64,000 bases of DNA from a virus (taxonomy: Duplodnaviria > Caudoviricetes), in the IMG/VR virus record IMGVR_UViG_2716884858_000003, positions 50,479 to 114,478 of that record, one strand, 5' to 3'. Of the stretch, positions 28,646 to 60,851 are shown piece by piece. Below the pieces are notes generated by a model, which was not told the origin of the DNA, did no database searches, and was given only the letters and a program-made list of their open reading frames with translations. Made by a program: the position numbers and the translations under genes. The stretch's first letter is position 1, and each line of letters starts with the position of its first letter.

Positions 28646-28706
28646 TAGTATTCCGTTTGATCGCTGGTTCAGGGCCGGATCTTCACGCGCATACCGCTGG
28701 AGATCC
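28646..28706 (+). promoter_or_regulatory. Late leader element (capsid)
   Basis: TAGTAT 28646; hairpin GAT-CG-CTGGTT-CAG-GGCCGG-ATC 28659-28681. Confidence 0.75.
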
Positions 28707-28709
28707 CGT

Positions 28710-30368
28710 ATGGACTTCGAGATTCCCGAGGACGTCACCGCTCTCGACGACGAGGCCCTGGCCCAGGCACTGGACGGCGCCCGCGCCGCCTTCGCCACCC
28801 TGTCCGGCCAGGACGTCATCGATGGCGACGCCATGGGCCGCATGCGCGCCCTGGCCGGGTGCGTCGAGGACATCCGTACCGAGCAGACCGCTCGCGTGGA
28901 GGCCGCCACCCAGGCCGCCGCCGAGATCGAGGCACTCGCCGCCCAGGTGCGTGGCGAGGAGGCCACCCCGCAGGCCCCGGCCGCCCCTGCTGCGGAGGGA
29001 GAGGAGCCGGCCGAGCCGGTCGCCGCAGCCACCGAGCAGCCCCCGGCCCCGGAGGCGCCGGCCGCCCCGGAGGCCACGGCGTCCGCCGTCGTCGTCCCGA
29101 CCCGCCCCGCGCTCAACCTGCGCGCCGTACGCCGCGCCCAGCCGCGCGTCCTGCCGGAGGCCCCGCCCCCGGGCACCACCATCACCGCGGCCGTGGACGT
29201 CCCCGGCTACACCCCCGGCTCGGACCTGGTCTTCGACGACGTGGTCAAGGGCATCAACTCCCGCGCCACCGCCCTCAAGACGGCCGGCGGCGGCGTGGGC
29301 CAGGTGATCAGCTATCACCACCCGTACCCGGCGGACACGATCGTCACGGACTCCAGCAGCGCGCCCGAGGGCACCACCGTGGCCATGGTCGCCTCCAGCC
29401 AGTCCCGGCTGCCCCAGGGCGACCTGGTCGCGTCCGGCGGCTGGTGTGCCCCGTCCGAGACGCTCTATGAACTGACGGACACGTCCTGCCCGGACATGCT
29501 GTGGGACGCCCCGGAGATCCAGCTGAGCCGGGGCGGCCTGCGCTACTACAAGCCGCTGTCCCTGGACGTCTCCCAGCTCACGTGGGTGCACACCGAGGCC
29601 GACGACATCGCCGGCAACACCAAGCCGTGTTTCCGCATCCCCTGCCCGGACCCGGTGGAGGTGCGCTGTGACGCGGTCGGCGTCTGCCTGGAGGCAGGCA
29701 TCCTGACCCAGCGTCATTTCCCGGAGCTCATCGCCTGGTACCTGCGCAACAGCATGGTGGCCCACGAGATCCGGCTGCGGCAGGTGCTGTTCCAGAAGGC
29801 GCTGGCGACGGCCACCCCGGTGACCATCCCAGCGTCCATGGCCGCCGTCTCCGCCGTGTTCGGCGCGGTCGCCCTCCAGGCCGCGGACATGATCGAGCGT
29901 CACAGCCTGTGCGACAGCACGGCGCTGGAGGTCGTGTTCCCGTGGTGGTCCAAGAACATGTTCCTGGCGGACCTGGCCAGGAGGAACGGCTGCTGCCCCT
30001 CCGAGGTGAGCGCCCAGGACGTGCAGGACCTGTTCAGCCCGCTGGGCGTGCGCATCCAGTGGGCGCGCGGCCTGGCCCCGGCCGTCCCCACCGACATCGG
30101 CGGCACCACCGCGGCCACCGACTGGCCGTCCACCATCCAGTTCCTCATGTACCCGGCCGGCTCCCTGGTCATCGGGCGCGGCGAGGACGTGAACCTGGGC
30201 GTAATTCACGACTCGACCAAGTTCAGCCGCAACGACTACACGGCCCTCTTCGCCGAAGAGTGCGTGGCGCTTGTTGACAGGTCCGTCGACACGCGCCTCG
30301 TGACCGTGCCCGTCTGCGCGTCCGGTGAGACCGGCGCCCAGACGCTGGTCGCCTGCCCGACCGCCTGA
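28710..30368 (+). CDS. Major capsid protein with N-terminal scaffold-like region (552 aa)
   Basis: LVASGGWCAPSETLYEL motif, acidic helical N-terminus plus PA linker. Confidence 0.88.
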   Translation: MDFEIPEDVTALDDEALAQALDGARAAFATLSGQDVIDGDAMGRMRALAGCVEDIRTEQTARVEAATQAAAEIEALAAQVRGEEATPQAPAAPAAEGEEPAEPVAAATEQPPAPEAPAAPEATASAVVVPTRPALNLRAVRRAQPRVLPEAPPPGTTITAAVDVPGYTPGSDLVFDDVVKGINSRATALKTAGGGVGQVISYHHPYPADTIVTDSSSAPEGTTVAMVASSQSRLPQGDLVASGGWCAPSETLYELTDTSCPDMLWDAPEIQLSRGGLRYYKPLSLDVSQLTWVHTEADDIAGNTKPCFRIPCPDPVEVRCDAVGVCLEAGILTQRHFPELIAWYLRNSMVAHEIRLRQVLFQKALATATPVTIPASMAAVSAVFGAVALQAADMIERHSLCDSTALEVVFPWWSKNMFLADLARRNGCCPSEVSAQDVQDLFSPLGVRIQWARGLAPAVPTDIGGTTAATDWPSTIQFLMYPAGSLVIGRGEDVNLGVIHDSTKFSRNDYTALFAEECVALVDRSVDTRLVTVPVCASGETGAQTLVACPTA

Positions 30369-30381
30369 CCCCCACACAGCA

Positions 30382-30412
30382 GTGCCGGGCCCCCTTCACG
30401 CGGGCCCGGCAC
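30382..30412. terminator. Hairpin between convergent capsid and HNH genes
   Basis: GTGCCGGGCCC/GGGCCCGGCAC. Confidence 0.65.
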
Positions 30413-30446
30413 GCCGCCACCGGAGGAGGTGAGGCAGGTGAACGCG

Positions 30447-31184
30447 TCAGCGCGTCAGCGGCACGCCGCAGTGGAACGGCCGGTCAGCGAACACGTCCCC
30501 GTACTTGCGGAGGCGCTGCTCGTGGCCGTCACACAGCGGCTCCCCGCCGTTGAGGACGACGTACGGCCTGCCGCACCCCTTCACGGAACAACCGTCGTCC
30601 ACCGGACGGCCGTTGCTGGAACGCTCCGCGCTCACGTTGACGGCGTGTGTCACGGCCTTGAGGTGGGCCGGGTTCACACACCGTCGGTGCGGGCACGTGG
30701 GGCCGCCTGCGCACTCCTTCGGGTCATGGCAGGCGTGATCTACCACCAGGCCAGGAGGGATGCTGCCGTGTTGCAGCGAGTAGGCGTAGCGGTGCGCCGG
30801 GGAGTGCAGGAAGCTCCCGTACCCGTGGACCGTGATGGTGCCCTCCCAGGGCCAGCACGCGTCCAGATCGCCGCCCTGGGTGTCGACCAGGGTCCAGAAG
30901 TCGGCGTTGAGATCGCCGGTGTAGTTGAACTGGCGCCGGAGCAGTTCCAGCGTTCCGTTGCGGTACAGCCGGGTGTAGTGCTTGCGGCACAGCCCCTTGG
31001 CGATCGAAGTGCTGCCGCACTCGTCAACCGAGCAGGGCGCGTTAGCCGCCTTGCGTGTGCGTACGGTCAGCGGGTCGCCGGTGCGCTGCCACCGGACGTA
31101 GTGCTTGTTACACCAGCTGCGGGCGATGGGCGGGCGCGGGCAGCGGGCTCCGTTCTCGACAGCGGAACAGGTAACGTCGGCCAA
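30447..31184 (-). CDS. HNH homing endonuclease with Cys/His zinc-binding repeats
   Basis: CWPWEG..AHRYAY..VDHAC..RRCVNPAHL..N; three C..C..CxxH modules. Confidence 0.88.
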   Translation of the reverse strand: MADVTCSAVENGARCPRPPIARSWCNKHYVRWQRTGDPLTVRTRKAANAPCSVDECGSTSIAKGLCRKHYTRLYRNGTLELLRRQFNYTGDLNADFWTLVDTQGGDLDACWPWEGTITVHGYGSFLHSPAHRYAYSLQHGSIPPGLVVDHACHDPKECAGGPTCPHRRCVNPAHLKAVTHAVNVSAERSSNGRPVDDGCSVKGCGRPYVVLNGGEPLCDGHEQRLRKYGDVFADRPFHCGVPLTR

Positions 31185-42236: not shown

Positions 42237-42263
42237 CCCCTCACCCCTCCTGGAGGTCTCCTC

Positions 42264-43082: not shown

Positions 43083-43151
43083 TAGACTCGAACTGCACGT
43101 CGCTGGTTTAGGGCCGGACGCGACTCCTCCACCAGGAGCCCCCTCATGGCC
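43083..43151 (+). promoter_or_regulatory. Late leader element
   Basis: TAGACT 43083; CGT-CG-CTGGTT-TAG-GGCCGG-ACG 43098-43120. Confidence 0.75.
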
Positions 43152-45287: not shown

Positions 45288-45369
45288 TAGACTGAACTCG
45301 CCGCTGGCTTCGGGCCGGGCAACATGTCGCTGGTTGAGGGCCGGGCTTCCTGCACGTAGGAGGCACGGC
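45288..45369 (+). promoter_or_regulatory. Late leader element with two tandem hairpins
   Basis: TAGACT 45288; hairpins 45300-45320 and 45326-45346. Confidence 0.75.
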
Positions 45370-46925: not shown

Positions 46926-46927
46926 TG

Positions 46928-48234: not shown

Positions 48235-48608
48235 GCGTGGAGGTACGCATCGACCAGGGCGCCCTGCTGCGCCTGCTGCGGGCTCGTGGCGGGATCGCAC
48301 GGCGCAAGCTCCAGCAGAAGGTGGACCGCGTCGCCCGCATCGCGGAGGCGGAGGCCCCCGGGAGCATGGGCGACTACATCGAGACGGACGTCAGGGAGGG
48401 GCCGCGCGGCCTGGAGGGCGTGGTCACCTGCACCCACCCCAAGGCCCGCCTGGTCCTGGAGGGCACCAGGCCGCACCCCATCCGGCCTCGTCGGCGCAAC
48501 TTTCTGCGGTTCGAGGTCGGCGGCGACGTGGTGTTCACCAAGCTGGTCCGCCACCCCGGGACCAGGCCCAACAACTTCCTGGCCAGGGCGCTGCGCCTGG
48601 GGCGATGA
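48231..48608 (+). CDS. HK97 gp10-like neck protein
   Basis: EGTRPHPIRP..LRF..VRHPGTRPNNFL..AL. Confidence 0.7.
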   Translation: MSVEVRIDQGALLRLLRARGGIARRKLQQKVDRVARIAEAEAPGSMGDYIETDVREGPRGLEGVVTCTHPKARLVLEGTRPHPIRPRRRNFLRFEVGGDVVFTKLVRHPGTRPNNFLARALRLGR

Positions 48609-48629
48609 GGATATCGGCTCTACCGCACG

Positions 48630-49403
48630 TCACATTTCCAGAGCTTTTTGCGCCTCGCGAATGAAATCTCGGACTGCCCTGTCGAACGCGTCGAGCCCCC
48701 TAGAGGAGGGCGCCCAGCCTTGCTGGATGGGGGAGATGAGTGCTTCATAGTCCTGATCTGACAATCGAAGGCGACCGTTAATTTGCTCCATCTGTTGGAC
48801 TATTTCATTCGCTTCGTCGGGGATAATCCGACGGTTACTATTCGGGTGATACTCGGCCCTACGGGACATTACGCGCACGAGCTGTGAACTGAGGTCGCGG
48901 AGGCTGGCCGCGTCTGGCGAGTCCCGTGCCTGTTTCAAGTGGTGGCACACGCGAGTTGATCGCAGCCACTGCGGTTGCATCTTTGACAGGCTGTTCACTC
49001 TTATGTGGACCATGACTGCCGCTTTGGATACCGCCGCGGGTCCTTCGAGTTGCACCACGTTCAACTGCGTGTACGCCACGTGTTCTCGTTGACCTCGCGC
49101 CGAGCGATACTCTGTTAAATCGAGCGTTTCACCCAAAGGTGCGTCTGGGAAGGCGGAGATCGCTTGTTGCCAGTCGTTGATGGCAACGAGGAAGCTGACG
49201 TATGCGTCCCGCATAACGCCCCTTCGCCATTGTCTATGGGCTGCCAGTGCCTGCGAATTGACTGCGTCAAGTGCTGCGGTTGCCTGAGCGCTAGCTGCGT
49301 CAAGGGCAGCGCGCATCTGCCACCGGCCGACCAGGAGAGCTGTGGGCACGCTGACCGCGGCTACAGCGGCGGCCGCGATCGCTCCGACGCCTGCAAGATC
49401 CAT
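48630..49403 (-). CDS. Moron, N-terminal TM hypothetical protein, low GC
   Basis: Opposite strand, atypical composition; start MDLAG inferred. Confidence 0.65.
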   Translation of the reverse strand: MDLAGVGAIAAAAVAAVSVPTALLVGRWQMRAALDAASAQATAALDAVNSQALAAHRQWRRGVMRDAYVSFLVAINDWQQAISAFPDAPLGETLDLTEYRSARGQREHVAYTQLNVVQLEGPAAVSKAAVMVHIRVNSLSKMQPQWLRSTRVCHHLKQARDSPDAASLRDLSSQLVRVMSRRAEYHPNSNRRIIPDEANEIVQQMEQINGRLRLSDQDYEALISPIQQGWAPSSRGLDAFDRAVRDFIREAQKALEM

Positions 49404-49485
49404 GGGCCCAGCATGGCGTAACCACCGCTTTCCCCATCGGTGGTTTCGCAATTGCGCAACGCCCACCTGACGATGTGGCTCGGGC

Positions 49486-49554
49486 TACCCTGATCCTTAC
49501 GCCGACTGGTTGAGGGCCGGGCGAGGTGCGGGAGACGAGGACACACCCCGTGGC
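49486..49554 (+). promoter_or_regulatory. Late leader element
   Basis: TACCCT 49486; CGC-CGA-CTGGTT-GAG-GGCCGG-GCG 49500-49523. Confidence 0.7.
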
Positions 49555-50077
49555 ACAGAAGAACTTCGCTTTCAACACCGAACCTCACGTTGCCACCGTC
49601 AACGGCCATGACCTGCTGTTCCAGGCCGAAGTGATGGGCGATGAGTTCATGGACGCCTTCCAGGAGTTGAAGGACGCCCAGGCGGCGGCCTCCGGGATCG
49701 ACCTGGACGACCTGTCGACGCTGGACCCGGCCAAGCTGCGCGGCGCCGCCCGCGGCCTGCGCCTGTTCGTCGCCCGCCTCATGCTCCCGGAGAGTGCCCA
49801 GGAGTTCCTGGCCGTGGAGGTCGTCAAGGACGGCGTGCTGCTGTCCTCCCACCAGGACTGGGGCGAGGCGCAGCAGGCCGCGGACCAGACGGCGGGCGCG
49901 CGGGTGAAGTGGGCGATGCCCATGCCGGACCGCATCCTGGTCGCCCTCATGGAGTGGGTGACGGAGCTGTACGGAGGTGGGGCAGACAAGCGCCCTCCTA
50001 CGTCACGTGGCGGCTCTGCGAAAGCATCGCCGCGGGCTGGGAAGAGTGGTCCGGCGCGCTCGCGCTCGAAGGGGTAG
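49550..50077 (+). CDS. Tail assembly chaperone (G-like)
   Basis: Upstream of tape measure; ELYG..RPPT then low-complexity tail. Confidence 0.75.
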   Translation: MAQKNFAFNTEPHVATVNGHDLLFQAEVMGDEFMDAFQELKDAQAAASGIDLDDLSTLDPAKLRGAARGLRLFVARLMLPESAQEFLAVEVVKDGVLLSSHQDWGEAQQAADQTAGARVKWAMPMPDRILVALMEWVTELYGGGADKRPPTSRGGSAKASPRAGKSGPARSRSKG

Positions 50078-50328
50078 ACCTCCACGCCTGGCGACTGCGC
50101 ACCATGCTCGCCGCCGCCGAGGCCGCTATCGACGCGTCCGCCAAGGACGACCAGGAGCGGGCGCGCACCCGGGCCAAGCTGTACGCCCCGCCCCGGGGCC
50201 AGCGGCCCCCCGCGCGGTCGGCTGGGCCCGCAGCCAGCGGGCGGGGGATGAGCGTGGCCCAGGCCCAGGCGCTCATGGCCAGCGTGGCCGCCGAAGACGC
50301 CCAGGTCGCTGGCGGTCGTAGCGGATAG
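49993..50328 (+). CDS. Tail assembly chaperone T-like extension (-1 frame)
   Basis: Overlapping -1 frame PSYVTWRL..RAKLYAPP with no clear own start. Confidence 0.65.
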   Translation, partial: PSYVTWRLCESIAAGWEEWSGALALEGVDLHAWRLRTMLAAAEAAIDASAKDDQERARTRAKLYAPPRGQRPPARSAGPAASGRGMSVAQAQALMASVAAEDAQVAGGRSG

Positions 50329-50420
50329 TCTGGGATCACGGCAGGCCCCTCGTGGGGGCCGCCTCTCGCCGACTGGTTAAGGGCCGGGCACCACCACTCA
50401 CTAGTGGGGGCCGCCCGGTG
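50326..50420 (+). promoter_or_regulatory. Late leader element (tape measure)
   Basis: TAGTCT 50326; bulged hairpin 50340-50363; GC-CGA-CTGGTT-AAG-GGCCGG-GC 50368-50389. Confidence 0.7.
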
Positions 50421-53400: not shown

Positions 53401-54884
53401 GCATCGTGTACGGGCCCACCCATGCCCTCATCGGTGAGGCCGGGCCCGAGGTCGTCATCCCGCTGACCAACCCCAAGCGCGCCGCCGAGCTCGCCCATCA
53501 GTCCGGCCTGCTCGGCATCCTGGCCAGCCAGACCCGCGGCCTGGCCGCGGCGGCGGCCGCGACGACGAGCAGCAGCGGCGCCCAAGTGGGCGGCGCCGTG
53601 TCCACGCTGCGCTCCCTGCTCGCCGGCATCGGCAGCCTGCTGGACAACGTGGGCGCCAACGTCGTGCAGGGCATGGTCGACGGCATCCGCAACAACGCCG
53701 GCCTGGTCGCCACCGCCGCCACCGAGATGGCCGACACCGCGGCGGTCGCCGCCCGGAACACCCTGGAGATCCACAGCCCCAGCAAGGTTTTCACCAAGAT
53801 CGGCCGGGACGTGGGCCGCGGTTTCGTGGCCGGCCTGACCGGCACTGCCTCCCAGATCAAGAGCACCACGGAGAAGCTGGTCCGTGACATCCAGAACGCT
53901 TTCTCCGGGAAGAAGACCCGGCTGGATGACCGCCTGGTGGCGATGCTCGACGCCGGGAACAAGCGCCTCACCACCCTGGCCGCCCAGCGCGATGCCCTGG
54001 CCAAGAAGATCGCGGACGCGCAGAAGTTCGCCGCGGACACCACCAGCCAGGCGTTGCAGGCGTTCTCCCTCCAGAACCTGTCCCAGGGTCTGGCCGACGG
54101 CCAGGCGCTCACCGCCAAGACCCTGACGGCCAGCCTTCAGGGCGCGGTGGACCAGGTGAAGCGGTTCTCTGCCCAGCTCAACAACCTGGCCGCCCGGGGC
54201 CTGCGTAAGGACCTGCTCCAGCAGCTCGTGGGCCTGGGTCCCCAGCAGGGCGCGGAGCTCGCCACCGCCCTGGCCTCCGCCACCAAGGACCAGTTGAAGC
54301 GGCTTAACAGTGTCCAGGCGGAGCTGACCAAGGCATCCGGCACTCTCGGCAACACCTCCGCCGACGTCTTGTTCGACGCTGGGAAGCAGGCCGGTAAGGG
54401 GTTCCTCACCGGGTTGCAGGGCCAGCGCAAGAGCATTGAAAAGTTGATGCTCGACATCGCCAAGGGGATGCAGAGCGCCATCCGTACGGCGCTCAAGATC
54501 CACAGTCCCTCGCTCGTGATGCGGCGCATCGGCGAGTACACGGGCGCCGGCCTGGAGCTCGGCCTGGTGCAGCGCATGGCCGGGATCATGCGCGCGTCCA
54601 CGGCGGCGGCCCGCTCGATGGTGGACGCGGTCGCCGGACAGTTCGGCCTGCTGCCCGGGCGGGTCTCCTCCTCGCTCGGCGCGGTGGGCGACCTGGGCGC
54701 GGGCGTGGTGCCACTGACCCGGGCGCAGCGCGCCCGCCAGGCCGGGGCCGCGGAGGCCGCAGGAGGCGGCCGGTTCGGGTCCGGAACGACCATCAACAAC
54801 CACTTCGAGATCCGGGAGGTGGGCGACGGGCACGTGACCGCCCACCGCGTCGTCAACCGGCTCGTGTACGCGGCGGGATTGTGA
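50418..54884 (+). CDS. Tape measure protein
   Basis: Long Ala/Gly helical protein, FF.ALPG repeats, FAKGG..GEAGPE, two IHSPS motifs; GTG 50418 inferred. Confidence 0.92.
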   Translation: MAGEDEDFGSASVRIVLDDADAVADARDLGLRIKRALDRATRDAGEQIRANIQRGLRDVSVAVQVTPDMSQLRDRIERAAFFATAGAELRVPVLPDLDDFVTRIRALLAGEEFEVRVIPNLDDFDARIRAHRAPTITVDVEFDNDGLVRALSGLGKVAGRIGGVLLNTLKFAGIGIAAAGAAAGIGKFVAALAPAAGLIAAGPAVILGFQSALGGLKLALSGVSDAFKSALTDNAEKFEKSLEKLSPKAQAAAREVRALKPAFEDLRNTVQDGFFAQIEGQITSTAKALGGPLKTGLTGISTAWGVAAKNALGYVKGSQGVANVRSILGGAQAATEGLSQTTNRLTAGLLQVAAVVSDRFGAELSGGIANLGQRIGDFLQRIASGGQAVAWVDGALNTLARLGDIAGNVKGIFTGLFQAGEGAGAGVLNNLQTVTKAVSEFVNSTQGQTALGNVFATVGQVAQQLGPIISALVSNLGQIAPAVAPILAGFGPVLVGVISQLGAAAQGALPQLSVALQQIGAAAVSLGPALPPLAAAAAALARSAADLVVALAPAVTLLVQLVAPVINLAAPLIVAGAAVFGLVKVIKSAIAIFRLLQGVWLALNAAFVASPIGVIIVAVIGLVAAIYLLYQRFAIVRTVVDAVGRALRDGFLAAVGFVKSAASQIAGFFVGAFNSAKSAVSSGIDAVVGFFTGLPGKITSGLSSLGSTTGQFFVSAFETAKAGLTTATQAVVDFFVALPGRIVAALVALPGLLLGAFTSAVAFLIIGLLTVVAGIVFVFTELPGRIYNALVGLGQFLITAFVAGFNAVTSTVSDWISATVAFFQALPGRVYSALVSIGSFLLRAFTAGFNATRSAVSGWISSTVGFFRALPGQVSGALASLGSFLLRNFTSAFNSARSGITSFISSAVGFFRALPGRVASSLASLPGRIASAFTSAAGRARTAVSGLISGVVGLFRGLPGAILGAIGNIGGQIIAKVKSGIPSSVRKYLPFAKGGIVYGPTHALIGEAGPEVVIPLTNPKRAAELAHQSGLLGILASQTRGLAAAAAATTSSSGAQVGGAVSTLRSLLAGIGSLLDNVGANVVQGMVDGIRNNAGLVATAATEMADTAAVAARNTLEIHSPSKVFTKIGRDVGRGFVAGLTGTASQIKSTTEKLVRDIQNAFSGKKTRLDDRLVAMLDAGNKRLTTLAAQRDALAKKIADAQKFAADTTSQALQAFSLQNLSQGLADGQALTAKTLTASLQGAVDQVKRFSAQLNNLAARGLRKDLLQQLVGLGPQQGAELATALASATKDQLKRLNSVQAELTKASGTLGNTSADVLFDAGKQAGKGFLTGLQGQRKSIEKLMLDIAKGMQSAIRTALKIHSPSLVMRRIGEYTGAGLELGLVQRMAGIMRASTAAARSMVDAVAGQFGLLPGRVSSSLGAVGDLGAGVVPLTRAQRARQAGAAEAAGGGRFGSGTTINNHFEIREVGDGHVTAHRVVNRLVYAAGL

Positions 54885-54891
54885 GGGGCTG

Positions 54892-56211
54892 ATGACGGCC
54901 GAGTGGTACATGGAGTACGGCGGCGTCGAGATCGTGAACCATACGAGGCTCGACCAGTACCTGGAAACGGTGGGCTCCCCGCTGGACACCGGCGGCGGCT
55001 GCGGGTGCCCCACCTTCACCAACGAGGTGCTGGACCAACTGCCCCACACGACACCGGATGACGCGGACAACCCTGCGCCCTGGTACGACCCGGACGTGCC
55101 GGAGTCCAAGGAGTTCGCCGGCGTCATGGTGCTGGACGTCGCCGGCCTGGACGACTACCCCGTGCAGCGCACCGTCACCGGCGGGATCGCAGGCGGCTGC
55201 GCCATCGGCCCCGCGCGGGCCCTGCCGCGCACCATCACCGTGACCGCGATCCTGCTCGGGTCCACCTGCTGCGGCGTGGAGTACGGCCTCCAGTTCCTCG
55301 CCCAGGCCCTCCAGGGATGCGCGGGCGGGGACTGTGAGGGGGACTGCCTGGTCGTGTACGCCTGCTGTCCCGGAGGCGGCCTGACCCCGGCGGAGTTCAA
55401 CCGGCGGCACCGGCGCACGCTGCGCCGTGTCGCCCTCGTGGAGGGCCCCCGAGTCACGGCGCGGGCCGGGACGGGCTGCTCGACGGGGACGTGCCAGTCC
55501 GGGGCGGACATCCTCACCGTGGAATGGGTGATGACCGCCGCGGTGCCGTGGCTGTATACGGACCCCCTGCCCGTCATGGAGGTCACCCCGCCCATGGACC
55601 TGGACGGGTCCTGCGTGGAGTGGTGCCTGCACCCGGCCGGGGACGCGGGCTGCCCGGGCGGCTGCAAGTTCGCCGCCTGCGTGGACCCCACCGCGGCGTG
55701 CGCGGACACCCGCTGCCTCCCGGAGGCCCCACCCCTGCCCGGTGCTCCGCTTTCCACCTGCTTCTGCTTGCCGTTGGCGACGGAGCGCGCCTGCTACCCG
55801 ATGGACCTCACCGGCCGGCCGAACTGGTCCACGGACCTGCCCGTCATCACGGTGCGGTCCGGGTCGACGGAGCTGCGCAACCTCACCATCGCCATCTACG
55901 AGAGCGGCGAGGCGGGCATGACGTGCGACCAGGTCGCAGACTTCAAGCGGTGCACGCCGGTCAACTACTTCCACGTGGCCTACGTGCCGGCCGGAGGCGC
56001 CGTCACCCTGGACGGCCAGACCGGCCGGTCCACCGTGGAGTGCGGCGGCACCTGCGAGTCCAGCCCGGACGTGTACGGCCTGGACGGCATGCCGGTGACC
56101 TTCCAGCCCCTGGACTGCTCGACGTACTGCATCTGCCTGGAAACCGACCTGCAGAGCCCACCCGCGCTTGACGCCCTGGTCACCCTCAACGTCTCGGGCA
56201 GGGGGCGGTAA
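54892..56211 (+). CDS. Distal tail/minor tail protein, Cys-rich
   Basis: Follows tape measure; GGVEIVN..APWYDP; 29 Cys in 439 aa by manual count. Confidence 0.75.
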   Translation: MTAEWYMEYGGVEIVNHTRLDQYLETVGSPLDTGGGCGCPTFTNEVLDQLPHTTPDDADNPAPWYDPDVPESKEFAGVMVLDVAGLDDYPVQRTVTGGIAGGCAIGPARALPRTITVTAILLGSTCCGVEYGLQFLAQALQGCAGGDCEGDCLVVYACCPGGGLTPAEFNRRHRRTLRRVALVEGPRVTARAGTGCSTGTCQSGADILTVEWVMTAAVPWLYTDPLPVMEVTPPMDLDGSCVEWCLHPAGDAGCPGGCKFAACVDPTAACADTRCLPEAPPLPGAPLSTCFCLPLATERACYPMDLTGRPNWSTDLPVITVRSGSTELRNLTIAIYESGEAGMTCDQVADFKRCTPVNYFHVAYVPAGGAVTLDGQTGRSTVECGGTCESSPDVYGLDGMPVTFQPLDCSTYCICLETDLQSPPALDALVTLNVSGRGR

Positions 56212-57251
56212 TGGCGGTCGCCGGCTGCGGCACGCACCAGGCCATGGTGCTGGACAGGAGCGGTGCCACGGTGGCCGTCGCCAACGTGCTCACGTCCGTG
56301 GAGTGGACCCGCGTCCTGGACGGCGTGTCGACGGCCCAGGCCACCATCAACCCGGACGGGGACTGCTGCGGTCGTCTCGGGCGTATCTCCACGTGGCGCT
56401 CCCGCCTGGTCATCTTCCGTGACGGCCAGTACGTGTGGGACGGGCCGATCACCGGCATCACCTGGTCCCTTGGCCAGGTGGAGATCCGCGCCCAGGACGC
56501 CCTGGCGTGGCTCGGGGACCGCGTGCCGCACGAGAACAAGACCTTCACCAACGCGGACCTGTCCGAGATCGCCGAGTGGCTGATCGAGGACGGCTACCGG
56601 CCGGATGACCCGGGCCACACGGTGGAGGTGGTGGGCAAGGCCGGGGTGTCCGGCTCCCGCTCCTACAGCGCCGGTTTCGGCCAGACCCTGGACCACCTGG
56701 GCCAGTTGGCCGAGGCCGGTATCGACTACACGGCCATCGGCTCCAAGATCCTGCTGCTCCCGGAAACGCACCTGGTGCCGGTGGGCCGCCTGTCGGACAC
56801 GGACCTGCCGGACGGCCTGGAGGTGAGCGAGGACGGCACCGGCCTGGCCACCCGCTGGATCGTCGCTGGCAGTGAGGGCAGCGGCGTTATCGGCACGGCC
56901 GGAGGCATCGATCCGTACTACGGGCTGCACGAGCGGTACGTGGAACAGACGGAGATCACCGACCAGGCATCAGCGGACCAGGCGGCCGGGGCGCGGCAGC
57001 GGGCGTCTGGCACGGTGCCGGTGGTGATCGACACCCAGCAGGTCACCATCAGCCCGGAGGCCGCTGTCAACGTGCCTTCCCTTGTGCCCGGCTGGTGCCT
57101 GGACGTCACGTCGGCGTCCACCTGCCGCACCGTGCGCCAGCGGCTGAAGATCACCGGCCTGCGGGTGGCGGAGACCGGCGGGAACGACAACAACCCAGGT
57201 TCCGAGAGCGTGCAGGTGCAGGTAGCGGCGAGCGGAGCGGAGAACCCCTGA
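56211..57251 (+). CDS. Minor tail (hub, Gp37-like) protein
   Basis: VEWTRVLD..FRDG..VWDGPI..LVPGW. Confidence 0.75.
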   Translation: MAVAGCGTHQAMVLDRSGATVAVANVLTSVEWTRVLDGVSTAQATINPDGDCCGRLGRISTWRSRLVIFRDGQYVWDGPITGITWSLGQVEIRAQDALAWLGDRVPHENKTFTNADLSEIAEWLIEDGYRPDDPGHTVEVVGKAGVSGSRSYSAGFGQTLDHLGQLAEAGIDYTAIGSKILLLPETHLVPVGRLSDTDLPDGLEVSEDGTGLATRWIVAGSEGSGVIGTAGGIDPYYGLHERYVEQTEITDQASADQAAGARQRASGTVPVVIDTQQVTISPEAAVNVPSLVPGWCLDVTSASTCRTVRQRLKITGLRVAETGGNDNNPGSESVQVQVAASGAENP

Positions 57252-57718
57252 TGGCCATTCGGACCTCCCCCTCCCGGAGCCTGCCCGGTAACCCGCTGGG
57301 CGGGGTGCTGCGCCACCTGGACGCCCGCTCGAGGATCGCCGGCCGCACCCGCACCACGGGCCTGACGTTCGAGCAGGAAGCACCCCCGGCCGAGGCGCCG
57401 CCCGTGCGCGCGCCTGCATGGCCTGCTGCCGCCGTGCTGACCACCGGCGAGGACGGGCGGGCCCGGTGGGCGTTCCCGGCGCCGTACGGAGCTGCCCCGG
57501 CCGTCTCGGCGCTCGCCCTGGACCCGGCGCCCGAGGACGACGACCGCACGGTGCTCGTCGCCCTGGAGGAGGCCACCACCTGGTGCGTAGTCGTGCGGGT
57601 GTGGCGCACCAGGGGGCGGCGCGGTGCGGGGGTGGCGGAGCCGGCCGGGGCCGGGGTGCGTGTGCACGTGACCGCCCAGGACGTCGCTGCGGCACCGCCC
57701 AACCCCGAGGCAAACTAG
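57251..57718 (+). CDS. Hypothetical phage tail-region protein
   Basis: TGATG coupling. Confidence 0.6.
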   Translation: MAIRTSPSRSLPGNPLGGVLRHLDARSRIAGRTRTTGLTFEQEAPPAEAPPVRAPAWPAAAVLTTGEDGRARWAFPAPYGAAPAVSALALDPAPEDDDRTVLVALEEATTWCVVVRVWRTRGRRGAGVAEPAGAGVRVHVTAQDVAAAPPNPEAN

Positions 57719-57793
57719 GGCGCAACATGCGCAACCCCCGCGAAGGTGGGCACCAGGCGCGGGGGTTGCACTGCCGACTGATTGGGAGTCGAC

Positions 57794-58567
57794 GTGACCC
57801 ACGATAGGGGCCGTGCGCCCGAGGAGGCGCCCGAGCGCGCCTGCGCCATCTGCGGGACGAGCCTGGAGGGCTACCGGAGCCACGCCCGGGTGTGCTCCAG
57901 CAAGGCGTGCCGCAACGCCGCGGCGAGCAAGCTGCCACGGCTGTGGAAGACCGCCAGGCCGAAGCAGTGCACCGTGGTCGAGGACGGCGTGAGGTGCACC
58001 AGGACGGCCACCAAGCGGATGACCACCGACGTGTGGTGCTCGATCCACGACGGCCGCGCCCTCCGTACCGGCAGCCCGCTCGTCCTCAAGGCAGTCCGAC
58101 GACCGCAAGGCGAGGTGCGCGCCCTGCTGGACCAGGCAGCCGCACACGACGGCGACGGGTGTTTCCTTGTGCCCGGCCCTGACGGTGGGCGGCTGTCCGT
58201 CTCGTACCAGGGCCGACCGATGACCGCCGCCCGGGCCGTGTGGATGATCCGCCACGGGGACCCGGGCGACCGGCACGTCCTCCACACCTGCCACCGCGGC
58301 GACGAGGGGTGCGCCAGCGTCGGCCACCTGTACCTGGGCGACCACGAGCAGAACATGGTGGACATGATCGAGTCCGGGCGCAGCACACACGGCGAGCGGC
58401 ACGCCTTCCACCAGCTGACGGAGGAACAGGTGCGGGACATCGTCCGGCGGGCTCGCGCGGGCGAGAAGCAGCGGGTGCTCGCCGCGGAGTTCGGCATCTC
58501 GCAGACGCACGTCTCGAACCTGAAGAACGGCAAGGCGTGGTGGCGCATCACTAGCATGGGCCAGTAG
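57794..58567 (+). CDS. HNH endonuclease with C-terminal HTH, paralogue of 46928
   Basis: VLHTCHRGDEGCASVGHLYLGDHEQN; start GTG 57794 from shared leader. Confidence 0.88.
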   Translation: MTHDRGRAPEEAPERACAICGTSLEGYRSHARVCSSKACRNAAASKLPRLWKTARPKQCTVVEDGVRCTRTATKRMTTDVWCSIHDGRALRTGSPLVLKAVRRPQGEVRALLDQAAAHDGDGCFLVPGPDGGRLSVSYQGRPMTAARAVWMIRHGDPGDRHVLHTCHRGDEGCASVGHLYLGDHEQNMVDMIESGRSTHGERHAFHQLTEEQVRDIVRRARAGEKQRVLAAEFGISQTHVSNLKNGKAWWRITSMGQ

Positions 58568-58616
58568 TCGCTGGTTCAGGGCCGGACTCACTTCGCACCC
58601 GAGGGGTGAGTCCGGT
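58552..58616 (+). promoter_or_regulatory. Late leader element
   Basis: TAGCAT 58552; AGT-CG-CTGGTT-CAG-GGCCGG-ACT 58566-58588. Confidence 0.75.
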
Positions 58617-59337
58617 AGCAGCAGTTTGTGTAGATGACAGCTATTTCGAGGTGGGCGATGACGGGCGGCTGACGCTCGTCCCCGGGCAGCAGGGCCTGCG
58701 TAACGTCCTGTACTTCAAGACTCCGGGGGCTGACACCTTCAAGAAGGCCGACTATCCATGGCTCGCGCGGGTGTTCGTCATGGTTCAGGCCGGTGGGGGA
58801 GGCGCGGCCGGCGCCCGCGCGAACGCCAACCAGTTGGTGGCGCAGCCGGGGGGCTCGGGTGGCGGGTACGCGGAGCGGCTGATCGCGGCGTCCGCGCTCG
58901 GCGCCACGGAGGCCATCGTCGTCGGCGACGCCGGCATCGCGGGCACGCCGACAGGGGACGGCGGCCCGGGCGGTAACTCCTCCTTCGGCGGCCTGTGCAC
59001 CGCGCTGGGCGGCAACCCGGGCCAGGCCGTCATGCCGTCCGGGGCGACGCCCATGTGCCTGTCGGGTACCTCCGGGCCGCTTGCCGGGGTGGGCGATATG
59101 GCGCAGGGCGGGGGCCCCGGGGGCGGAGCCCTGCGGATCAGCGGCGGTGAGGGGCAGAGCGGGGAGGGCGGGGAGTCCCGGCTGGGCCACGGCGGATGGC
59201 AGCGCTCCTCCTCGGGCGGCGGTGGGGCGGGCCGCGGCTACGGCGGCGGCGCGGCCGGCGCCCTGGCCAGGGACGGCGACAGTGTGAACGGCACCCCTGG
59301 CGGTGCGGGCATCGTCATCGTGTACCTGTACGGCTGA
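58606..59337 (+). CDS. Glycine-rich minor tail protein
   Basis: VQAGGGG..GGSGGGYAE..GYGGGAAG..GGAGIVIV. Confidence 0.8.
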   Translation: MSPVAAVCVDDSYFEVGDDGRLTLVPGQQGLRNVLYFKTPGADTFKKADYPWLARVFVMVQAGGGGAAGARANANQLVAQPGGSGGGYAERLIAASALGATEAIVVGDAGIAGTPTGDGGPGGNSSFGGLCTALGGNPGQAVMPSGATPMCLSGTSGPLAGVGDMAQGGGPGGGALRISGGEGQSGEGGESRLGHGGWQRSSSGGGGAGRGYGGGAAGALARDGDSVNGTPGGAGIVIVYLYG

Positions 59338-59341
59338 CCCC

Positions 59342-59474
59342 GTGTCCTGGACGCGTCTGGACACCCGTGTCCGGACAGTGTCCGTGCAGGTCAGCCGTGT
59401 CCGGTGCTCATGTCCCGGATGGTGTCCGCGCGTTGTCCGGACATCGGCCCGGACTTGTCCGCGATGGTGTCCGG
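59342..59474 (-). repeat. Phased CCGGACAC-like array, intergenic, inverted relative to 27196-27313
   Basis: About 9 (G/T/A)TGTCC copies, many 11-13 bp apart; GCAGGTCA at 59386. Confidence 0.75.
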
Positions 59475-59486
59475 GCAGGCCGTCGA

Positions 59487-59557
59487 TAGACTCGACGGTG
59501 CGCCGCTGGTTTAGGTCCGGGCCACGATCAACCCCCAAGGACGGTGGGATCAGTGGC
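59487..59557 (+). promoter_or_regulatory. Late leader element
   Basis: TAGACT 59487; GC-CG-CTGGTT-TAG-GTCCGG-GC 59502-59522. Confidence 0.7.
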
Positions 59558-60389
59558 GAGGTGCGGATGCGCCGGAGGCGCGTGCAACTGCGCGGTGGAG
59601 TCCGGGACCAACGTCAGCGTCAGCGGTTCCGGGTCGGCGGCCAACCCGTACGTCATCAGCGCGGCGATTCCATGCGCGGACGTGAGGGCGTGTCTGTCCG
59701 CCGGGCCCGGCATCAACCTGGACCAGGCCACCGGCGCGATTTCCGCGGACCTGTCCGGGCAGGCAGGCAACAACGTGACGATCGGGCCGGACGGCGGCCT
59801 GTACGTGCCCACGGCCGGCGGCGCGGTGCTCACGGGCTGCGGCCTGGTCGGCAACGGCACCGCGAGCGCCCCCGTCAAGGCAAAGACCGGGACGTGGCCG
59901 TACCCGTGCAGCCTCGACACGTTCGGCGGAGTGGTGGCGTGCGACAGCAACGGCGTCCTGCGGGGCGAGCCGCGCGGCAGGCTCTCGTTCGCGTCCTACT
60001 TCGACAACCGGGACTATCCCGACGTGCCGGTCCCGGCCGCCCAGAACACGGTGCTGGACAACTTCACGGTCAATGTGACCAACCCCGACACGTGCCGCAC
60101 CGCCATGGTGCTGACGGAGCGGGAGGTGGACGTGTATGTCGTGCTGCCAGCCGGGGCCGCCGCGGGCACCGGGCACAGCAATGACGAGATGTACTACATG
60201 CGCAACAGCGGCACGAGCACCATCGTTGGCACGCACGTCCAGACCACGAAGTTCCTGGCGGAGCCGGCCCTGCTCGCCCCCGGCGCGACGATGCCGGTGA
60301 CGCTGACCGCGACCGGTGGCCGCGGCGCGGGCGGCGCCTACTACTACGGCATCAACTTTGTCCTCCGGACCATGATCATCAGCCTGTGA
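59553..60389 (+). CDS. Fibre-like protein, paralogue of 43146
   Basis: MARCGCAGGACNC..GSAANPY..CADVRAC..G.DGGLY. Confidence 0.75.
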   Translation: MARCGCAGGACNCAVESGTNVSVSGSGSAANPYVISAAIPCADVRACLSAGPGINLDQATGAISADLSGQAGNNVTIGPDGGLYVPTAGGAVLTGCGLVGNGTASAPVKAKTGTWPYPCSLDTFGGVVACDSNGVLRGEPRGRLSFASYFDNRDYPDVPVPAAQNTVLDNFTVNVTNPDTCRTAMVLTEREVDVYVVLPAGAAAGTGHSNDEMYYMRNSGTSTIVGTHVQTTKFLAEPALLAPGATMPVTLTATGGRGAGGAYYYGINFVLRTMIISL

Positions 60390-60400
60390 GGAGCGCGACT

Positions 60401-60784
60401 ATGTCCCTGGGACTTCCCGGTCTGCCCGAGTGGCCGTGGCCTGACGGCGATGACCCGACGACGCCGCCCAAGCCGACGACGCATTACGTCCAGTACCCGG
60501 ACGGCCACATCAGCCAGATCACCGCCACCGGCGCGGAACCCGTACTCGCCGAGGGCGCCAAGCTGCTGACGCAGGAGCAGTACGAGGAGACGCGCGCCCA
60601 GATGCTGGAGGCGCATGAGGCGCGCCTGACGGAGCTCCAGGCCGGGGAGGAGGCAGCGCAGCTCCAGCAGTACAAGGACCTGCGGGCGGTGGGCCTGCCG
60701 GAGGCGACCGCGCGGTCCTTGTCCGGCTACACCGGCCAGGCCGTGGCCGGCGACGCCCAAGGCGCTGCACAGACGGCCGGTTAG
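60401..60784 (+). CDS. Small phage protein following fibre gene
   Basis: SD GAGGAG; YPDG..GAKLLTQEQY then coiled coil. Confidence 0.7.
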   Translation: MSLGLPGLPEWPWPDGDDPTTPPKPTTHYVQYPDGHISQITATGAEPVLAEGAKLLTQEQYEETRAQMLEAHEARLTELQAGEEAAQLQQYKDLRAVGLPEATARSLSGYTGQAVAGDAQGAAQTAG

Positions 60785-60851
60785 ACTCCTCAGCAGTCGC
60801 TGGTTCAGGGCCGGACGAGGTACCCCGCTACGGGAGTGATCCGCCTTGTCC
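60782..60851 (+). promoter_or_regulatory. Late leader element (lysis)
   Basis: TAGACT 60782; GT-CG-CTGGTT-CAG-GGCCGG-AC 60796-60816. Confidence 0.75.

Follow-up and report, generated by a model that had tools for sequence, protein, structure and literature searches.

The leaders of late genes in a Streptomyces prophage carry a repeated hairpin motif, which most likely marks the late messages of this prophage and its relatives for a shared regulator. Our best guess is that the hairpin is a factor-binding site gating translation or stability.

Repetition of the hairpin in late-gene leaders

The window, i.e. the whole 64,000-nt stretch of DNA analyzed here, was scanned with the pattern CTGGYTNNGGKCCGG. 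The scan resulted in nine exact matches on the + strand and none on the − strand, with cores starting at 28664, 43103, 45304, 45330, 49506, 50373, 58571, 59506 and 60800. By chance 0.05 matches are expected, and none of 100 shuffles reached nine (maximum 1). The whole 114,478-b provirus record contains no copy beyond these nine, and the reversed-pattern control gave 0 matches in it. When two mismatches were allowed, 31 matches were found versus 20.7 ± 5.0 expected, a count reached in 4 of 100 shuffles; the extra matches are at chance level only. A previous sequence-only reading had reported nine hairpins, all on the + strand, with outer stems that change sequence but keep pairing. The flanked starts we obtained are identical to those of that reading, all of its outer stems are present, and each copy possesses at least two flanking pairs. 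The observation of a repeated hairpin motif is confirmed.

All nine copies reside in late-gene leaders. Copy 1 (28659..28681, core 28664-28678, outer stem of the GAUC/GAUC type) is part of the major head protein gene's leader (ATG 28710; phrog_777). Copy 2 (43098..43120) precedes a 636-aa gene with no assigned function (ATG 43146), the product of which resembles at its C-terminus the product of gene 59544. The major tail protein (ATG 45370; phrog_792) has a tandem pair, consisting of the distal copy 3 (45300..45320), which displays the loop variant CUUCGGG, and the proximal copy 4 (45326..45346), 25 nt before the ATG. Copy 5 (49500..49523), with a 2-nt bulge (GA), belongs to a tail assembly chaperone-like gene (GTG 49550; phrog_12617), a label that also follows from the annotation of TurkishDelight gp26. 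Copy 6 (50368..50389), itself preceded by a G+C-rich hairpin, belongs to the leader of the tape measure gene (GTG 50418; phrog_305), and copy 7 (58566..58588) to that of a gene for a glycine-rich tail fibre-like protein (GTG 58606; phrog_863, PF21722). Copy 8 (59502..59522; loop variant U11) precedes a 281-aa gene with no assigned function (GTG 59544), and copy 9 (60796..60816) an amidase endolysin gene with an uncertain start at GTG 60836 or ATG 60896 (phrog_880, PF01510). Among genes that are not homologous, 50 distinct proximal leaders have the start codon 23–35 nt beyond the end of the proximal copy.

The motif is a family spread over related phages and prophages. Further copies were found in phage and prophage genomes. 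TurkishDelight has nine, 9/9 on the + strand, at 12.9–30.6 kb of its 93.6 kb, and related IMG/VR phages have 4–10 each (for instance seven in G006, six in G008, and nine plus one weak other-strand match in G002). In Streptomyces prophages the motif clusters on one strand. Five Streptomyces genomes, picked because the pattern scan had already matched in them, gave 7, 7, 1, 7 and 1 model matches, and in the three genomes with seven, all but one were located on a single strand of a single contig. Woodruffvirus phages carry a loop variant of the hairpin. No Rfam family matches the hairpin, and we found no description of it in print, in agreement with the earlier reading, which had not recognised it as a described family.

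Covariation and fold of the element

To assess the pairing of the flanks, we compared 42 distinct copies. The three variable flanking pairs were occupied by 118 Watson-Crick, 8 G-U and 0 other combinations in 126 cells. Pair 8-28 is GC in 34, AU in 7 and GU in 1 of the copies, pair 9-27 is CG in 20, UA in 20 and UG in 2, and pair 10-26 is CG in 34, UG in 5 and UA in 3. The covariation score was reached by 0 of 500 shuffles. When the partner was slid, pairing was seen in 18–46% of cells compared to 92.9%, and permutation of the flanks gave a mean stem of 1.89 ± 0.11 bp versus the observed 2.6 bp, with 0 of 5000 permutations as high. A model-based alignment of 60 distinct copies resulted in the same covariation picture. 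Since G-U is the sole non-Watson-Crick pair and would be C.A on the other strand, a sense-strand RNA is favoured. The element is very probably a structured sense-strand RNA, and the covariation across relatives upholds the earlier preference for an RNA over a duplex-DNA operator.

Such an operator, of the stoperator kind, would allow a phage repressor bound at about +1 to +25 to silence the late promoters in the lysogen. The motif is indeed asymmetric and intergenic, always faces the same way with respect to transcription, and extends over the predicted start; its 15-bp core is invariant apart from free bases in the centre. These are temperate phages: the annotation of TurkishDelight lists an immunity repressor, Cro and an integrase, and the window's record encodes an integrase and a Cro/CI-type HTH protein. 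Moreover, late promoters with good host-type −10 boxes must somehow stay silent. However, an operator would predict neither the covarying flank pairs nor G-U as their sole exception. The early region, where the immunity repressor must act, is devoid of copies: the first 78 kb of the record contain none, and at 31–93 kb of TurkishDelight no site exceeds the weight-matrix threshold. The distance between the −10-like box and the core is also variable (over all phages mostly 10–14 nt, and in addition 17–18 and 22 nt), and the bulge differs in length by one base. We therefore consider a DNA operator very unlikely.

The stoperators of Cluster A mycobacteriophages are duplex-DNA repressor sites distributed across early and late regions, and they share with our motif that they are short asymmetric repeats in small intergenic gaps of temperate actinophages, oriented with transcription (PMC4351075). 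In contrast, the copies described here are confined to late leaders and their flanks covary as base pairs. Short conserved repeats in one orientation before a subset of actinophage genes are a further likeness, as in the start-associated sequences SAS and ESAS. The SAS of Cluster K mycobacteriophages is described as occupying the ribosome-site position itself, and deviations in the ESAS, according to the authors, lend no support to RNA pairing (PMC3203893). Our repeat is instead located 23–35 nt upstream of the start, downstream of a distinct −10 box whose distance varies, and departures within the hairpin do support pairing. Related intergenic repeats are described in Cluster O phages (PMC4351075) and in Microbacterium Clusters EC, EF, EG and EI, where the EC motif starts with TAGaCT and lies 21–30 bp before start codons (PMC7302621).

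The inner part of the hairpin differs from what had been drawn before. The sequence-only reading had proposed a 6-bp inner stem depending on G-U pairs, which is not the best register: the GGTCCGG copies have U.U at positions 5/11, which do not covary, and the 42 copies contain three C.A mismatches in this register compared to none in a bulged one. We thus replaced it with a bulged stem and a 7-nt loop. The change of C1 to A is paired with that of G14 to U (ATGG...CCTG in four G008 copies), and G15 to A is accompanied by U at −2 in 3/3 CCGA copies; based on these co-changes the bulged-stem register is preferred. The better model, as read from the aligned copies, would consist of the outer stem, a bulged G, C1-G14, a bulged U2, G3-C13, G4-C12 and the loop. 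The outer stem comprises 3–5 bp, the 5′ bulge 1–2 nt, the 7-nt loop is rich in invariant letters (YUNWGGK), and the element spans about 23 nt. Invariant in all 42 distinct copies are G(-1), C1, U2, G3, G4, U6, G9, G10, C12, C13 and G14. Single-sequence folding of eight leaders was unremarkable (z −1.0 to +1.95), and in most leaders the hairpin is missing from the minimum-free-energy structure. The evidence for structure is comparative rather than thermodynamic.

The fold is reminiscent of the coat-protein operators of MS2 and PP7, which are single repressor sites in RNA genomes, placed over the start codon of one gene. They likewise have a short stem, close to the ribosome site, in which a base bulged out on the 5′ side is conserved, as is the loop, whereas here a dsDNA phage has many sites 23–35 nt upstream of the start. 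ANTAR targets, known in Actinobacteria, are paired hairpins with 6-nt loops, and they resemble our element as small leader hairpins with a 3′ side overlapping a downstream inhibitory helix. The differences are the 7-nt loop, the single copy in six of eight leaders, the absence of an ANTAR domain from the record and the lack of an Rfam match.

Promoter-like boxes and the predicted 5′ end of late messages

The TANNNT boxes noted by the sequence-only reading are present as described. Seven of the nine copies have one within −30..−3 (10–14 nt before the core), compared to 1.2% of 20,000 random window positions (binomial P ~1e-12). All are on the + strand: TAGTAT at 28646..28651 (12 nt before the core of copy 1), TAGACT at 43083..43088 (14 nt, copy 2), 45288..45293 (10 nt, copy 3), 59487..59492 (13 nt, copy 8) and 60782..60787 (12 nt, copy 9), TACCCT at 49486..49491 (14 nt, copy 5) and TAGCAT at 58552..58557 (13 nt, copy 7). 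No box in this range precedes the second tandem copy or the tape-measure copy; for the latter the box, TAGTCT at 50326..50331 (+ strand), lies further upstream, with the G+C hairpin between box and copy 6, again as had been stated. With all phages pooled, 44 of 67 copies have a TANNNT box. As the box-to-core distance is mostly 10–14 nt, the usual start, 6–8 nt past the box, falls at the stem foot. No full sigma-70-type promoter was found at 42000-61999 (0 versus 0.9 expected). The capsid leader class has an AAGACA −35-like hexamer 18 nt upstream of its −10-like box, and at the major tail leader a strong G+C hairpin (about 45262-45287; −26.2 kcal/mol, z −2.4 to −3.1) adjoins the TAGACT at 45288 and fills the −35 position.

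A hairpin at the predicted 5′ end could act as a passive stabiliser against 5′-end-dependent RNases with no specific partner, its sequence being kept merely by the copying of promoter-leader cassettes within a phage lineage. The location of the stem foot fits this explanation, and the element precedes genes of the most abundant virion proteins. Pairing alone would suffice for such a role, however, and the invariant loop and bulges would not be needed. The stem is weak, neither the second copy of a tandem nor the tape-measure copy is terminal, and the core letters are invariant among relatives whose boxes, spacers, outer stems and coding sequences have diverged (proteins 38–88% identical). Passive stabilisation is thus unlikely.

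The copies sit between genes in a single long block of co-oriented genes, and their loop and bulges are conserved, which would also fit an RNA processing site where a host or phage endoribonuclease cuts a long late transcript into segments of different stability. Long T7 transcripts are cut into segments in this way by RNase III. Yet RNase III substrates have a far longer helix, and the strong TANNNT enrichment just upstream indicates initiation over cutting. No candidate nuclease is common to all the phages, and a PHROG labelled 'Rnase E' is located directly before the large terminase, in the usual slot of the small terminase. Of the explanations considered we regard processing as the least probable.

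The small conserved hairpin right behind each promoter-like box could also be a processive antitermination site of the lambda nut/boxB type with N or of the HK022 put type, where the nascent hairpin, with or without a phage protein, modifies the polymerase for read-through of G+C-rich hairpins between units. Strong hairpins of this kind exist, e.g. the one before the major tail box, with weaker ones before three other boxes (z −1.3 to −2.0), and some leaders have tandem copies. The nut and put sites act in early operons, with two sites per genome located tens to hundreds of bases from the start; nut has boxA as a partner, and put is a larger two-stem RNA. The likeness is that of small promoter-proximal RNA hairpins, more than one per phage, acting in cis on the transcribing complex. 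In contrast, our element lies at the predicted 5′ end of late units, the aligned flanks contain no boxA-like second conserved linear element, and canonical terminators are not enriched (3 versus 4.5 ± 2.1 in shuffles, 42000-61999). In addition, the G+C hairpins between units have no U-tracts, the order of box, G+C hairpin and motif in the tape-measure leader is wrong for a nut site, and a search of all frames of the record gave no Q-type antiterminator domain. With its own promoter-like box, each unit does not obviously require read-through, and the fixed 23–35 nt spacing to the start codon is left unexplained. Antitermination therefore appears improbable.

A predicted downstream helix and a possible trans-acting factor

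As a tentative explanation, possible but far from assured, the hairpin would gate translation of the late messages via a trans-acting factor. Eight late units (capsid, two fibre-like genes, major tail, tail chaperone, tape measure, glycine-rich fibre and endolysin) would each be read by the host RNA polymerase from a −10-only TANNNT promoter, as their upstream sequences suggest, and the cis-acting structured RNA would lie at, or within a few bases of, their 5′ ends. The hairpin would be the recognition site for one factor, probably phage-encoded and late-acting, which may bind it and switch the late messages on after transcription has started. The 3′ arm and the 3′ outer strand of the hairpin would also serve, in the leaders of the capsid, major tail and tape measure genes, as the base of a stable helix burying the Shine-Dalgarno sequence and start region. 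A closed hairpin would open this occluding helix, as proposed for Com of phage Mu at mom, and a terminal hairpin would additionally shield the mRNA 5′ end.

Helices of this kind are predicted on the + strand of the window. At 28674..28709 (−17.5 kcal/mol, z −3.3), the copy 1 3′ arm and an anti-SD stretch would pair with the capsid GGAG, and accessibility would rise from 0.15 to 0.51 on withdrawal of the hairpin. At 45340..45369 (−19.7 kcal/mol, z −3.5; 0.09 to 0.43), the copy 4 3′ arm and CUUCCU would face AGGAGG and pre-start bases of the major tail gene, and at 50383..50420 (−23.6 kcal/mol, z −2.9), the copy 6 3′ arm would pair with bases up to and into the tape-measure GTG. Here the change is 0.17 to 0.21 in this window, compared to 0.03–0.14 to 0.22–0.46 in the other seven orthologous leaders of the class.

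Across 50 leaders, which represent about eight orthologous classes and are not independent, the stretch from 3′ arm to start codon has a mean z of −1.97, with z < −1 in 29/50 and values of −2.4 to −6.4 in capsid, major-tail and tape-measure leaders. Pairing of the 3′ arm with pre-start bases is modestly enriched (30/50 versus 20.7 expected in G+C-rich shuffles). Withdrawal of the whole hairpin up to +18 increased ribosome-site accessibility from 0.295 to 0.477, and the 26 leaders starting below 0.3 reached a mean of 0.45; the gain is small overall relative to shuffles (+0.18 versus +0.14). Forcing the three inner pairs alone gave 0.295 to 0.339, below shuffled spacers (0.394 to 0.517). A stable downstream helix is absent (z > 0) in 17/50 leaders, including all tail-chaperone and 59544-family leaders, and occlusion is thus insufficient as a full explanation.

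The Mu system, where protein binding to a hairpin is proposed to melt a translation-inhibition helix, resembles our case in its layout: immediately 5′ of the helix that hides the start, the phage mRNA forms a short hairpin whose loop is sequence-specific (PMC6483171). The account of Mu concerns one target versus eight leaders per genome here (PMC6483171), our record has no Com-type zinc ribbon, and occlusion is found in some leader classes only. Among the phages compared, no shared non-structural gene with an RNA-binding domain was found, and no candidate binding protein for the hairpin emerged; all frames of the record were negative for ANTAR, Com zinc ribbon, cold-shock domain, Q-type antiterminator, sigma region 2 and CAT_RBD.

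The motif in the late block and in related phages

The 114,478-b IMG/VR provirus record, with the window as its right-hand 64 kb, has a G+C content of about 70%. From 20.9 kb onward the window carries a siphophage late block that lies entirely on the + strand and comprises portal, MuF/protease fusion, major head protein, major tail protein, a tail chaperone-like gene, tape measure, minor tail and fibre-like genes and an amidase endolysin with holin. Of the named relatives, Streptomyces phage TurkishDelight is the closest (late proteins show 37-67% identity over their full length), followed by the Woodruffvirus (BD-cluster) phages TP1604 and phiSAJS1.

The pattern CTGGYTNNGGKCCGG matched nine times in the window (28664-60800), always on the + strand, where 0.05 matches were expected, and no further copies were found elsewhere in the 114-kb record. 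Every copy lies in a non-coding gap ahead of a late gene, and 6 of the 8 leaders hold a single copy. A -10-like TANNNT box was present within 30 nt upstream of 7 of the 9 copies, compared with 1.2% of random positions (P ~1e-12). One of the two copies without a near box is the second member of a tandem pair; the other belongs to the tape-measure leader, where the box lies further upstream, behind a G+C hairpin. The coordinates, stems and boxes given in the sequence-only reading were all correct on rechecking. The motif is real, and the genes that it marks form a defined regulon for capsid, tail, tape measure, fibre and lysis. An HNH endonuclease ORF (57782-58567) is inserted among the tail genes and ends a few bases before the seventh hairpin copy.

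The distance from box to core is mostly 10-14 nt. Since actinobacterial transcription usually starts 6-8 nt after a TANNNT box, the transcription start is predicted at the foot of the hairpin stem. A look-up of sequencing runs with 42501-51500 listed none of RNA. A scan of 42000-61999 found no full -35/-10 promoter. As no sigma region 2 was found in any frame of the 114-kb record, the late boxes are likely read by the host polymerase. A WhiB-family gene is present in the window's phage, TurkishDelight, TP1604 and phiSAJS1, and we speculate that its product could serve promoters without a -35 element. A strong G+C hairpin at ~45262-45287 (GCGGCCGGG...CCCGGCCGC; -26.2 kcal/mol, z -2.4 to -3.1) directly adjoins the -10 box of the major tail leader, at the -35 position, and is kept in relatives with other loops. 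This hairpin may serve the preceding unit as a U-less terminator.

An exact-pattern scan of IMG/VR returned several contigs with multiple copies. Allowing at most one mismatch, six other proviruses or phages (G001-G006) have 4-10 copies on one strand and 0-3 on the other, compared with 0-1 for a reversed-pattern control; in G006 all 7 copies share a strand. TurkishDelight has 9 copies, all + and all within 12.9-30.6 kb, which precede the genes for capsid, major tail (2 copies), chaperone, tape measure (2 copies), minor tail protein, membrane protein and tailspike. In a weight-matrix scan of six whole genomes, copies above threshold were confined to the late blocks, except for one weak match in G002.

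Searched against 506,783 b of related phage DNA, a covariance model built from 42 copies matched 61 times at E ≤ 1. In five Streptomyces genomes, which were picked for pattern-scan matches, it gave 7, 7, 1, 7 and 1 matches; where there were 7 (three genomes), one strand of one contig held all but one of them. Matches were present in 11 of 151 Streptomyces species genomes (two of the 151 picked for pattern-scan matches), and 4 of these 11 have one-strand clusters of 4 to 8 matches within tens of kb. Among the matches listed from a pattern scan of genome contigs, most single ones are due to chance. Because model matches in Streptomyces genomes fall mostly in prophage-like clusters, on one strand of one contig and not chromosome-wide, a host regulon is unlikely and the reading as a host element was rejected. 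Searched for in actinophage and prophage genomes, as had been proposed from the sequence alone, the motif recurs in TurkishDelight, IMG/VR contigs and prophage-like clusters of Streptomyces.

No exact copy was found in TP1604 or phiSAJS1. Their capsid and major-tail leaders carry CTGGCG[GT]TAGGCCGG after TATCAT, TACACT or TATGAT boxes, and in their tape-measure leaders a TAGACT box is followed by a related but changed form. Read by eye, this Woodruffvirus form has the same CUGG/CCGG frame as the motif and a different 7-nt loop (CGKUAGG). A resemblance to anticodon loops or T-loops, also noted by eye, was dropped because the Woodruffvirus loop does not fit it. The motif is thus present in isolated, culturable phages, as such in TurkishDelight and as a variant in TP1604 and phiSAJS1, which makes its function directly testable.

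TP1604 (L156) and phiSAJS1 (L157) also have a second repeated leader type, in which TAAGCTGGT is followed after ~20-25 nt by GAAGGGA before the start codon. These leaders precede other genes (e.g. TP1604 7730 and 19975; phiSAJS1 2944, 8034 and 22771), have no hairpin, and look like a separate promoter class. An otherwise unrelated provirus, G007, has a single tandem hairpin pair after a TAGAAT box (L143 10499-10563), which precedes a 36-codon hydrophobic ORF adjoining the integrase gene; a TROVE (Ro60-like) gene lies just beyond.

Covariation and register of the hairpin

As the core is nearly invariant, the distinction between RNA and DNA rests on the flanks. Among 42 distinct copies, the three variable pairs beside the core are GC34/AU7/GU1, CG20/UA20/UG2 and CG34/UG5/UA3, with 0 of 126 cells unpaired; a fourth outer pair forms in only 21 of the 42. 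Cells paired in 92.9% of cases, compared with 84.3 +/- 1.1% in shuffles and 18-46% with slid partners. The covariation score was reached by 0 of 500 shuffles, and on permuting 5' against 3' flanks of 55 distinct copies the mean stem of 2.6 bp (1.89 +/- 0.11 in permutations) was reached in 0 of 5000, counts that overstate independence since the copies share ancestry. A given flank pair nevertheless varies among paralogous leaders within a genome as well as among orthologous leaders across genomes. G-U pairs, which are C.A on the opposite strand, are the sole non-Watson-Crick pairs in the flank stem. The covariation of the flanks, the complete pairing of their cells and G-U as the only exception favour RNA over a DNA operator, as the sequence-only reading had supposed. 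A Chi-like or packaging signal in DNA was rejected because of the leader-only placement and the pairing covariation.

The DNA alternative would be a duplex operator of the stoperator kind. Cluster A stoperators are described as asymmetric short sites, oriented with transcription, whose duplex DNA is bound by the repressor (PMC4351075). The motif resembles them in its asymmetry and orientation (9/9 copies + in the window, 9/9 in TurkishDelight, 7/7 on one strand in G006). Stoperators are however spread across early and late regions, including the early lytic promoter, whereas the motif is restricted to the late block in the 114-kb record, and TurkishDelight has no copy above the weight-matrix threshold outside 12.9-30.6 kb. 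Flank covariation with G-U pairs speaks against a duplex reading as well, and we regard an operator of this kind as improbable.

Within the core (positions 1-15), changes in relatives are coupled: C1 to A goes with G14 to U (4 copies, in the provirus G008), and G15 to A goes with U at -2 (3/3 copies). Positions 5 and 11 display no covariation and form U.U in the GGTCCGG copies, and the loop is therefore taken as 7 nt (YUNWGGK). These changes fit a register with C1-G14, a bulged U2, and -2 paired with 15. The sequence-only reading had been largely right about a covarying hairpin; its inner register, a 6-bp G-U-rich stem with C1-G15 and U2.G14, leaves three C.A cells as well as the U.U at 5/11 and was replaced by the bulged one. 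G008 (L148/L149) has both core forms, with 4 copies of ATGG...CCTG and 2 of CTGG...CCGG (L148/L149 5470-5504, 7422-7456 and 18054-18088; L149 5734-5768). If one factor reads both, pair 1-14 would be read as a pair and not as letters.

The hairpin is weak alone. Folds of single leaders were no better than shuffles, and the free-energy minima of most leaders do not contain it. A search of the whole window against Rfam 15 at gathering thresholds gave no match, and permissive E-values in 43000-50500 gave five weak matches (E 0.4-4), none at a motif copy, in line with the earlier impression that the element belongs to no described family. A literature search, with supplements and subscription papers outside it, found no published description; an earlier mention is possible, e.g. 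in phiC31-era work or phage database notes. We infer that the element is an RNA at the 5' end of the message, with an invariant loop and bulges that are read by something.

Start-codon distance, predicted downstream helix and possible action

Start codons were assigned by a fixed rule, which took the first ATG, GTG or TTG that had an SD-like 4-mer and opened a frame of ≥55 codons with a GC3 of ≥0.8. With starts so assigned, 23-35 nt separate the end of the proximal copy from the start codon in 50 distinct leaders. The genes behind these leaders are non-homologous, and the leaders have their own separate SD-like purine runs. The rule returned no start for three copies, and for the window's endolysin an uncertain one 81 nt from the motif. 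The annotated GTG start of TurkishDelight gene 33 (tailspike), at 30557, lies inside a hairpin copy (L133 30551-30565); an ATG 24 nt past the motif, preceded by a GAGG run, is more likely.

The motif is one of the general kind of repeated leader motifs found in actinophages. Others are the SAS/ESAS repeats of Cluster K, where departures in ESAS do not support RNA pairing according to the authors' text (PMC3203893), a 17-bp palindrome described for Cluster O (PMC4351075), and the EC, EF, EG and EI motifs described for Microbacterium phages (PMC7302621). The SAS/ESAS repeat sits at the ribosome-binding site just before the start codon, whereas the motif ends 23-35 nt before it; this spacing, a separate upstream -10 box and pairing covariation distinguish it from the other leader motifs. 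No mechanism accompanied the reports of SAS/ESAS, of the Cluster O and EG repeats or of the EC motif; for the present motif, comparative data speak for a structure in RNA rather than a site in DNA.

Compared with shuffles, the segment that begins with the motif's last five bases and runs to the start codon folds more stably (mean z -1.97, 50 leaders), with z below -1 in 29 leaders and above 0 in 17. Capsid, major-tail and tape-measure leaders reach z -2.4 to -6.4. In the helix predicted for them, the 3' arm of the motif, the 3' outer strand and an anti-SD run form pairs with the SD and with bases reaching to the start codon, and loops and stem letters vary among orthologues (CUUCCU/AGGAGG, ACUCCU/AGGAG, ACUCCUG/CAGGAGU). 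Folding of the 50 leaders showed no occluding helix in those of chaperone genes or of the 281-aa gene with GTG 59544 and its relatives. Pairing between the 3' arm and pre-start bases occurred in 30 of 50 leaders, a modest excess over the 20.7 expected.

A simple switch, in which only the three inner pairs are forced, was rejected, as accessibility of the ribosome site rose from 0.295 to 0.339 compared with 0.394 to 0.517 in shuffles. With the whole hairpin withdrawn up to +18 it rose from 0.295 to 0.477 (0.391 to 0.534 in shuffles), and the 26 most occluded leaders had a mean of 0.45 after withdrawal. A clear effect thus appears only when the whole hairpin including the 3' outer strand is withdrawn, and only in some leader classes.

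What is established here is a conserved, strand-specific, covarying hairpin in late leaders, where it neighbours -10-like boxes and keeps a fixed spacing to start codons. Our preferred reading, which we hold tentatively and with a confidence somewhat short of even, is a site for a trans factor that would license late messages after initiation. The host polymerase would start the late message at the foot of the stem, and the factor would bind the 5' hairpin and, by the likeliest route, open or bypass the helix that occludes the ribosome site; protection of the 5' end by the terminal hairpin would be a by-product. Opening is also what is proposed for phage Mu Com, which acts at mom on a hairpin that immediately precedes a helix masking the start signals (PMC6483171). 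An occluding helix is predicted for the capsid, major-tail and tape-measure leaders and is absent (z > 0) in 17 of 50 leaders. No Com zinc ribbon (PF10122) was matched in six frames of the 114-kb record at E ≤ 0.1.

The same hairpin could instead act in antitermination. At the lambda nut site a boxB hairpin lies in the transcript past the promoter with a linear boxA beside it, and N, an arginine-rich protein, allows terminators to be read through. The motif shares with nut a small, covariation-supported hairpin past promoter-like TANNNT boxes, here predicted in the promoter-proximal transcript. Unlike at nut, terminators are not enriched in the late block (3 terminator-like sites compared with 4.5 +/- 2.1 in shuffles, 42000-61999), and the G+C hairpins between units lack U-tracts. 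In alignments of 42-60 copies, the flanks show by inspection no further conserved block that could correspond to boxA. We consider antitermination unlikely. A passive stabiliser, in which protection of the 5' end would be the function and not a by-product, is about equally doubtful, and a processing site would be the least probable of these alternatives. ANTAR targets consist of two tandem hairpins with 6-nt loops, together with an ANTAR-domain protein; the motif differs in its 7-nt loop, in its single copy in 6 of 8 leaders and in the absence of PF03861 from the record. In its working principle the motif comes closest to Com/mom, boxB/N or coat-protein operators, without showing the full set of defining features of any of them.

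A more specific form of the licensing reading, possible and somewhat less probable than licensing as such, is an RNA-based late switch, in which one phage protein without a known RNA-binding domain would bind the 5' hairpin of every late message and license translation or elongation. Pfam and PHROG scans of ~50 proteins found no RNA-binding domain; no ANTAR, cold-shock, Q-type antiterminator or CAT_RBD domain was found in any frame of the 114-kb record; and comparisons of gene content, Pfam and PHROG found no non-structural gene with an RNA-binding domain common to the motif-bearing phages. In blastp comparisons of ORF sets, the window's phage, TurkishDelight, G006 and G008 share outside the structural block only an exonuclease, a 258-aa protein, part of a 515-aa protein and a small post-lysis ORF, and the sole non-structural matches to Woodruffvirus phages are HNH and WhiB. 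Atlas look-ups in the search for a partner gave unnamed clusters only. N-like arginine-rich RNA-binding peptides are short and hard to detect by homology, and the partner could also be a general host factor.

To our knowledge, late-gene activation in actinobacteriophages is largely unknown. With an RNA-based late switch, this large group of temperate Streptomyces phages would set its late timing after transcription has begun, and not through a late promoter activator. Such a switch would be the first mechanism of late-gene control to be defined for phages of Streptomyces, and a counterpart of Com/mom or N/boxB with many targets. A dedicated binding protein, if it exists, would represent a new RNA-binding family and provide a compact hairpin-protein pair for gene control in Streptomyces.

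Further genes of the prophage

Between terminase and structural genes there are three paralogous ORFs of 414-459 aa (437-4821, - strand). A domain scan of one of them (437-1816) identified an IS110-family transposase by its DEDD_Tnp_IS110 and Transposase_20 domains, and all three are ~30% identical to TurkishDelight gp49. A tRNA-Met gene (CAT anticodon) is located within the prophage at 5085-5162. Two giant ORFs lie between terminase and portal: 5517-11696 (-) encodes 2059 aa with two Laminin_G_3 domains, and 12035-18772 (+) an RHS-repeat protein of 2245 aa. The C-terminus of the latter matches Fic/DOC weakly, below threshold, and the protein looks like cargo of the polymorphic-toxin type. Both ORFs have an unusually low first-codon-position G+C (0.55-0.56), and G002 has homologues.

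Two further genes lie outside the window, in the left part of its record (G000). A 99-aa ORF at 11670-11969 (L153) has a weak match to the Acb2/Tad1 hairpin domain of the anti-defence sponge family (25.6 bits, below the 27-bit cut-off). A 6-pyruvoyl-tetrahydropterin synthase (QueD-like) gene at 45431-45883 (L155 5431-5883; E 3e-26) is located near ParB-like genes, and the corresponding place in TurkishDelight holds genes for a methyltransferase and an amidotransferase, which suggests a 7-deazaguanine-type DNA modification module.
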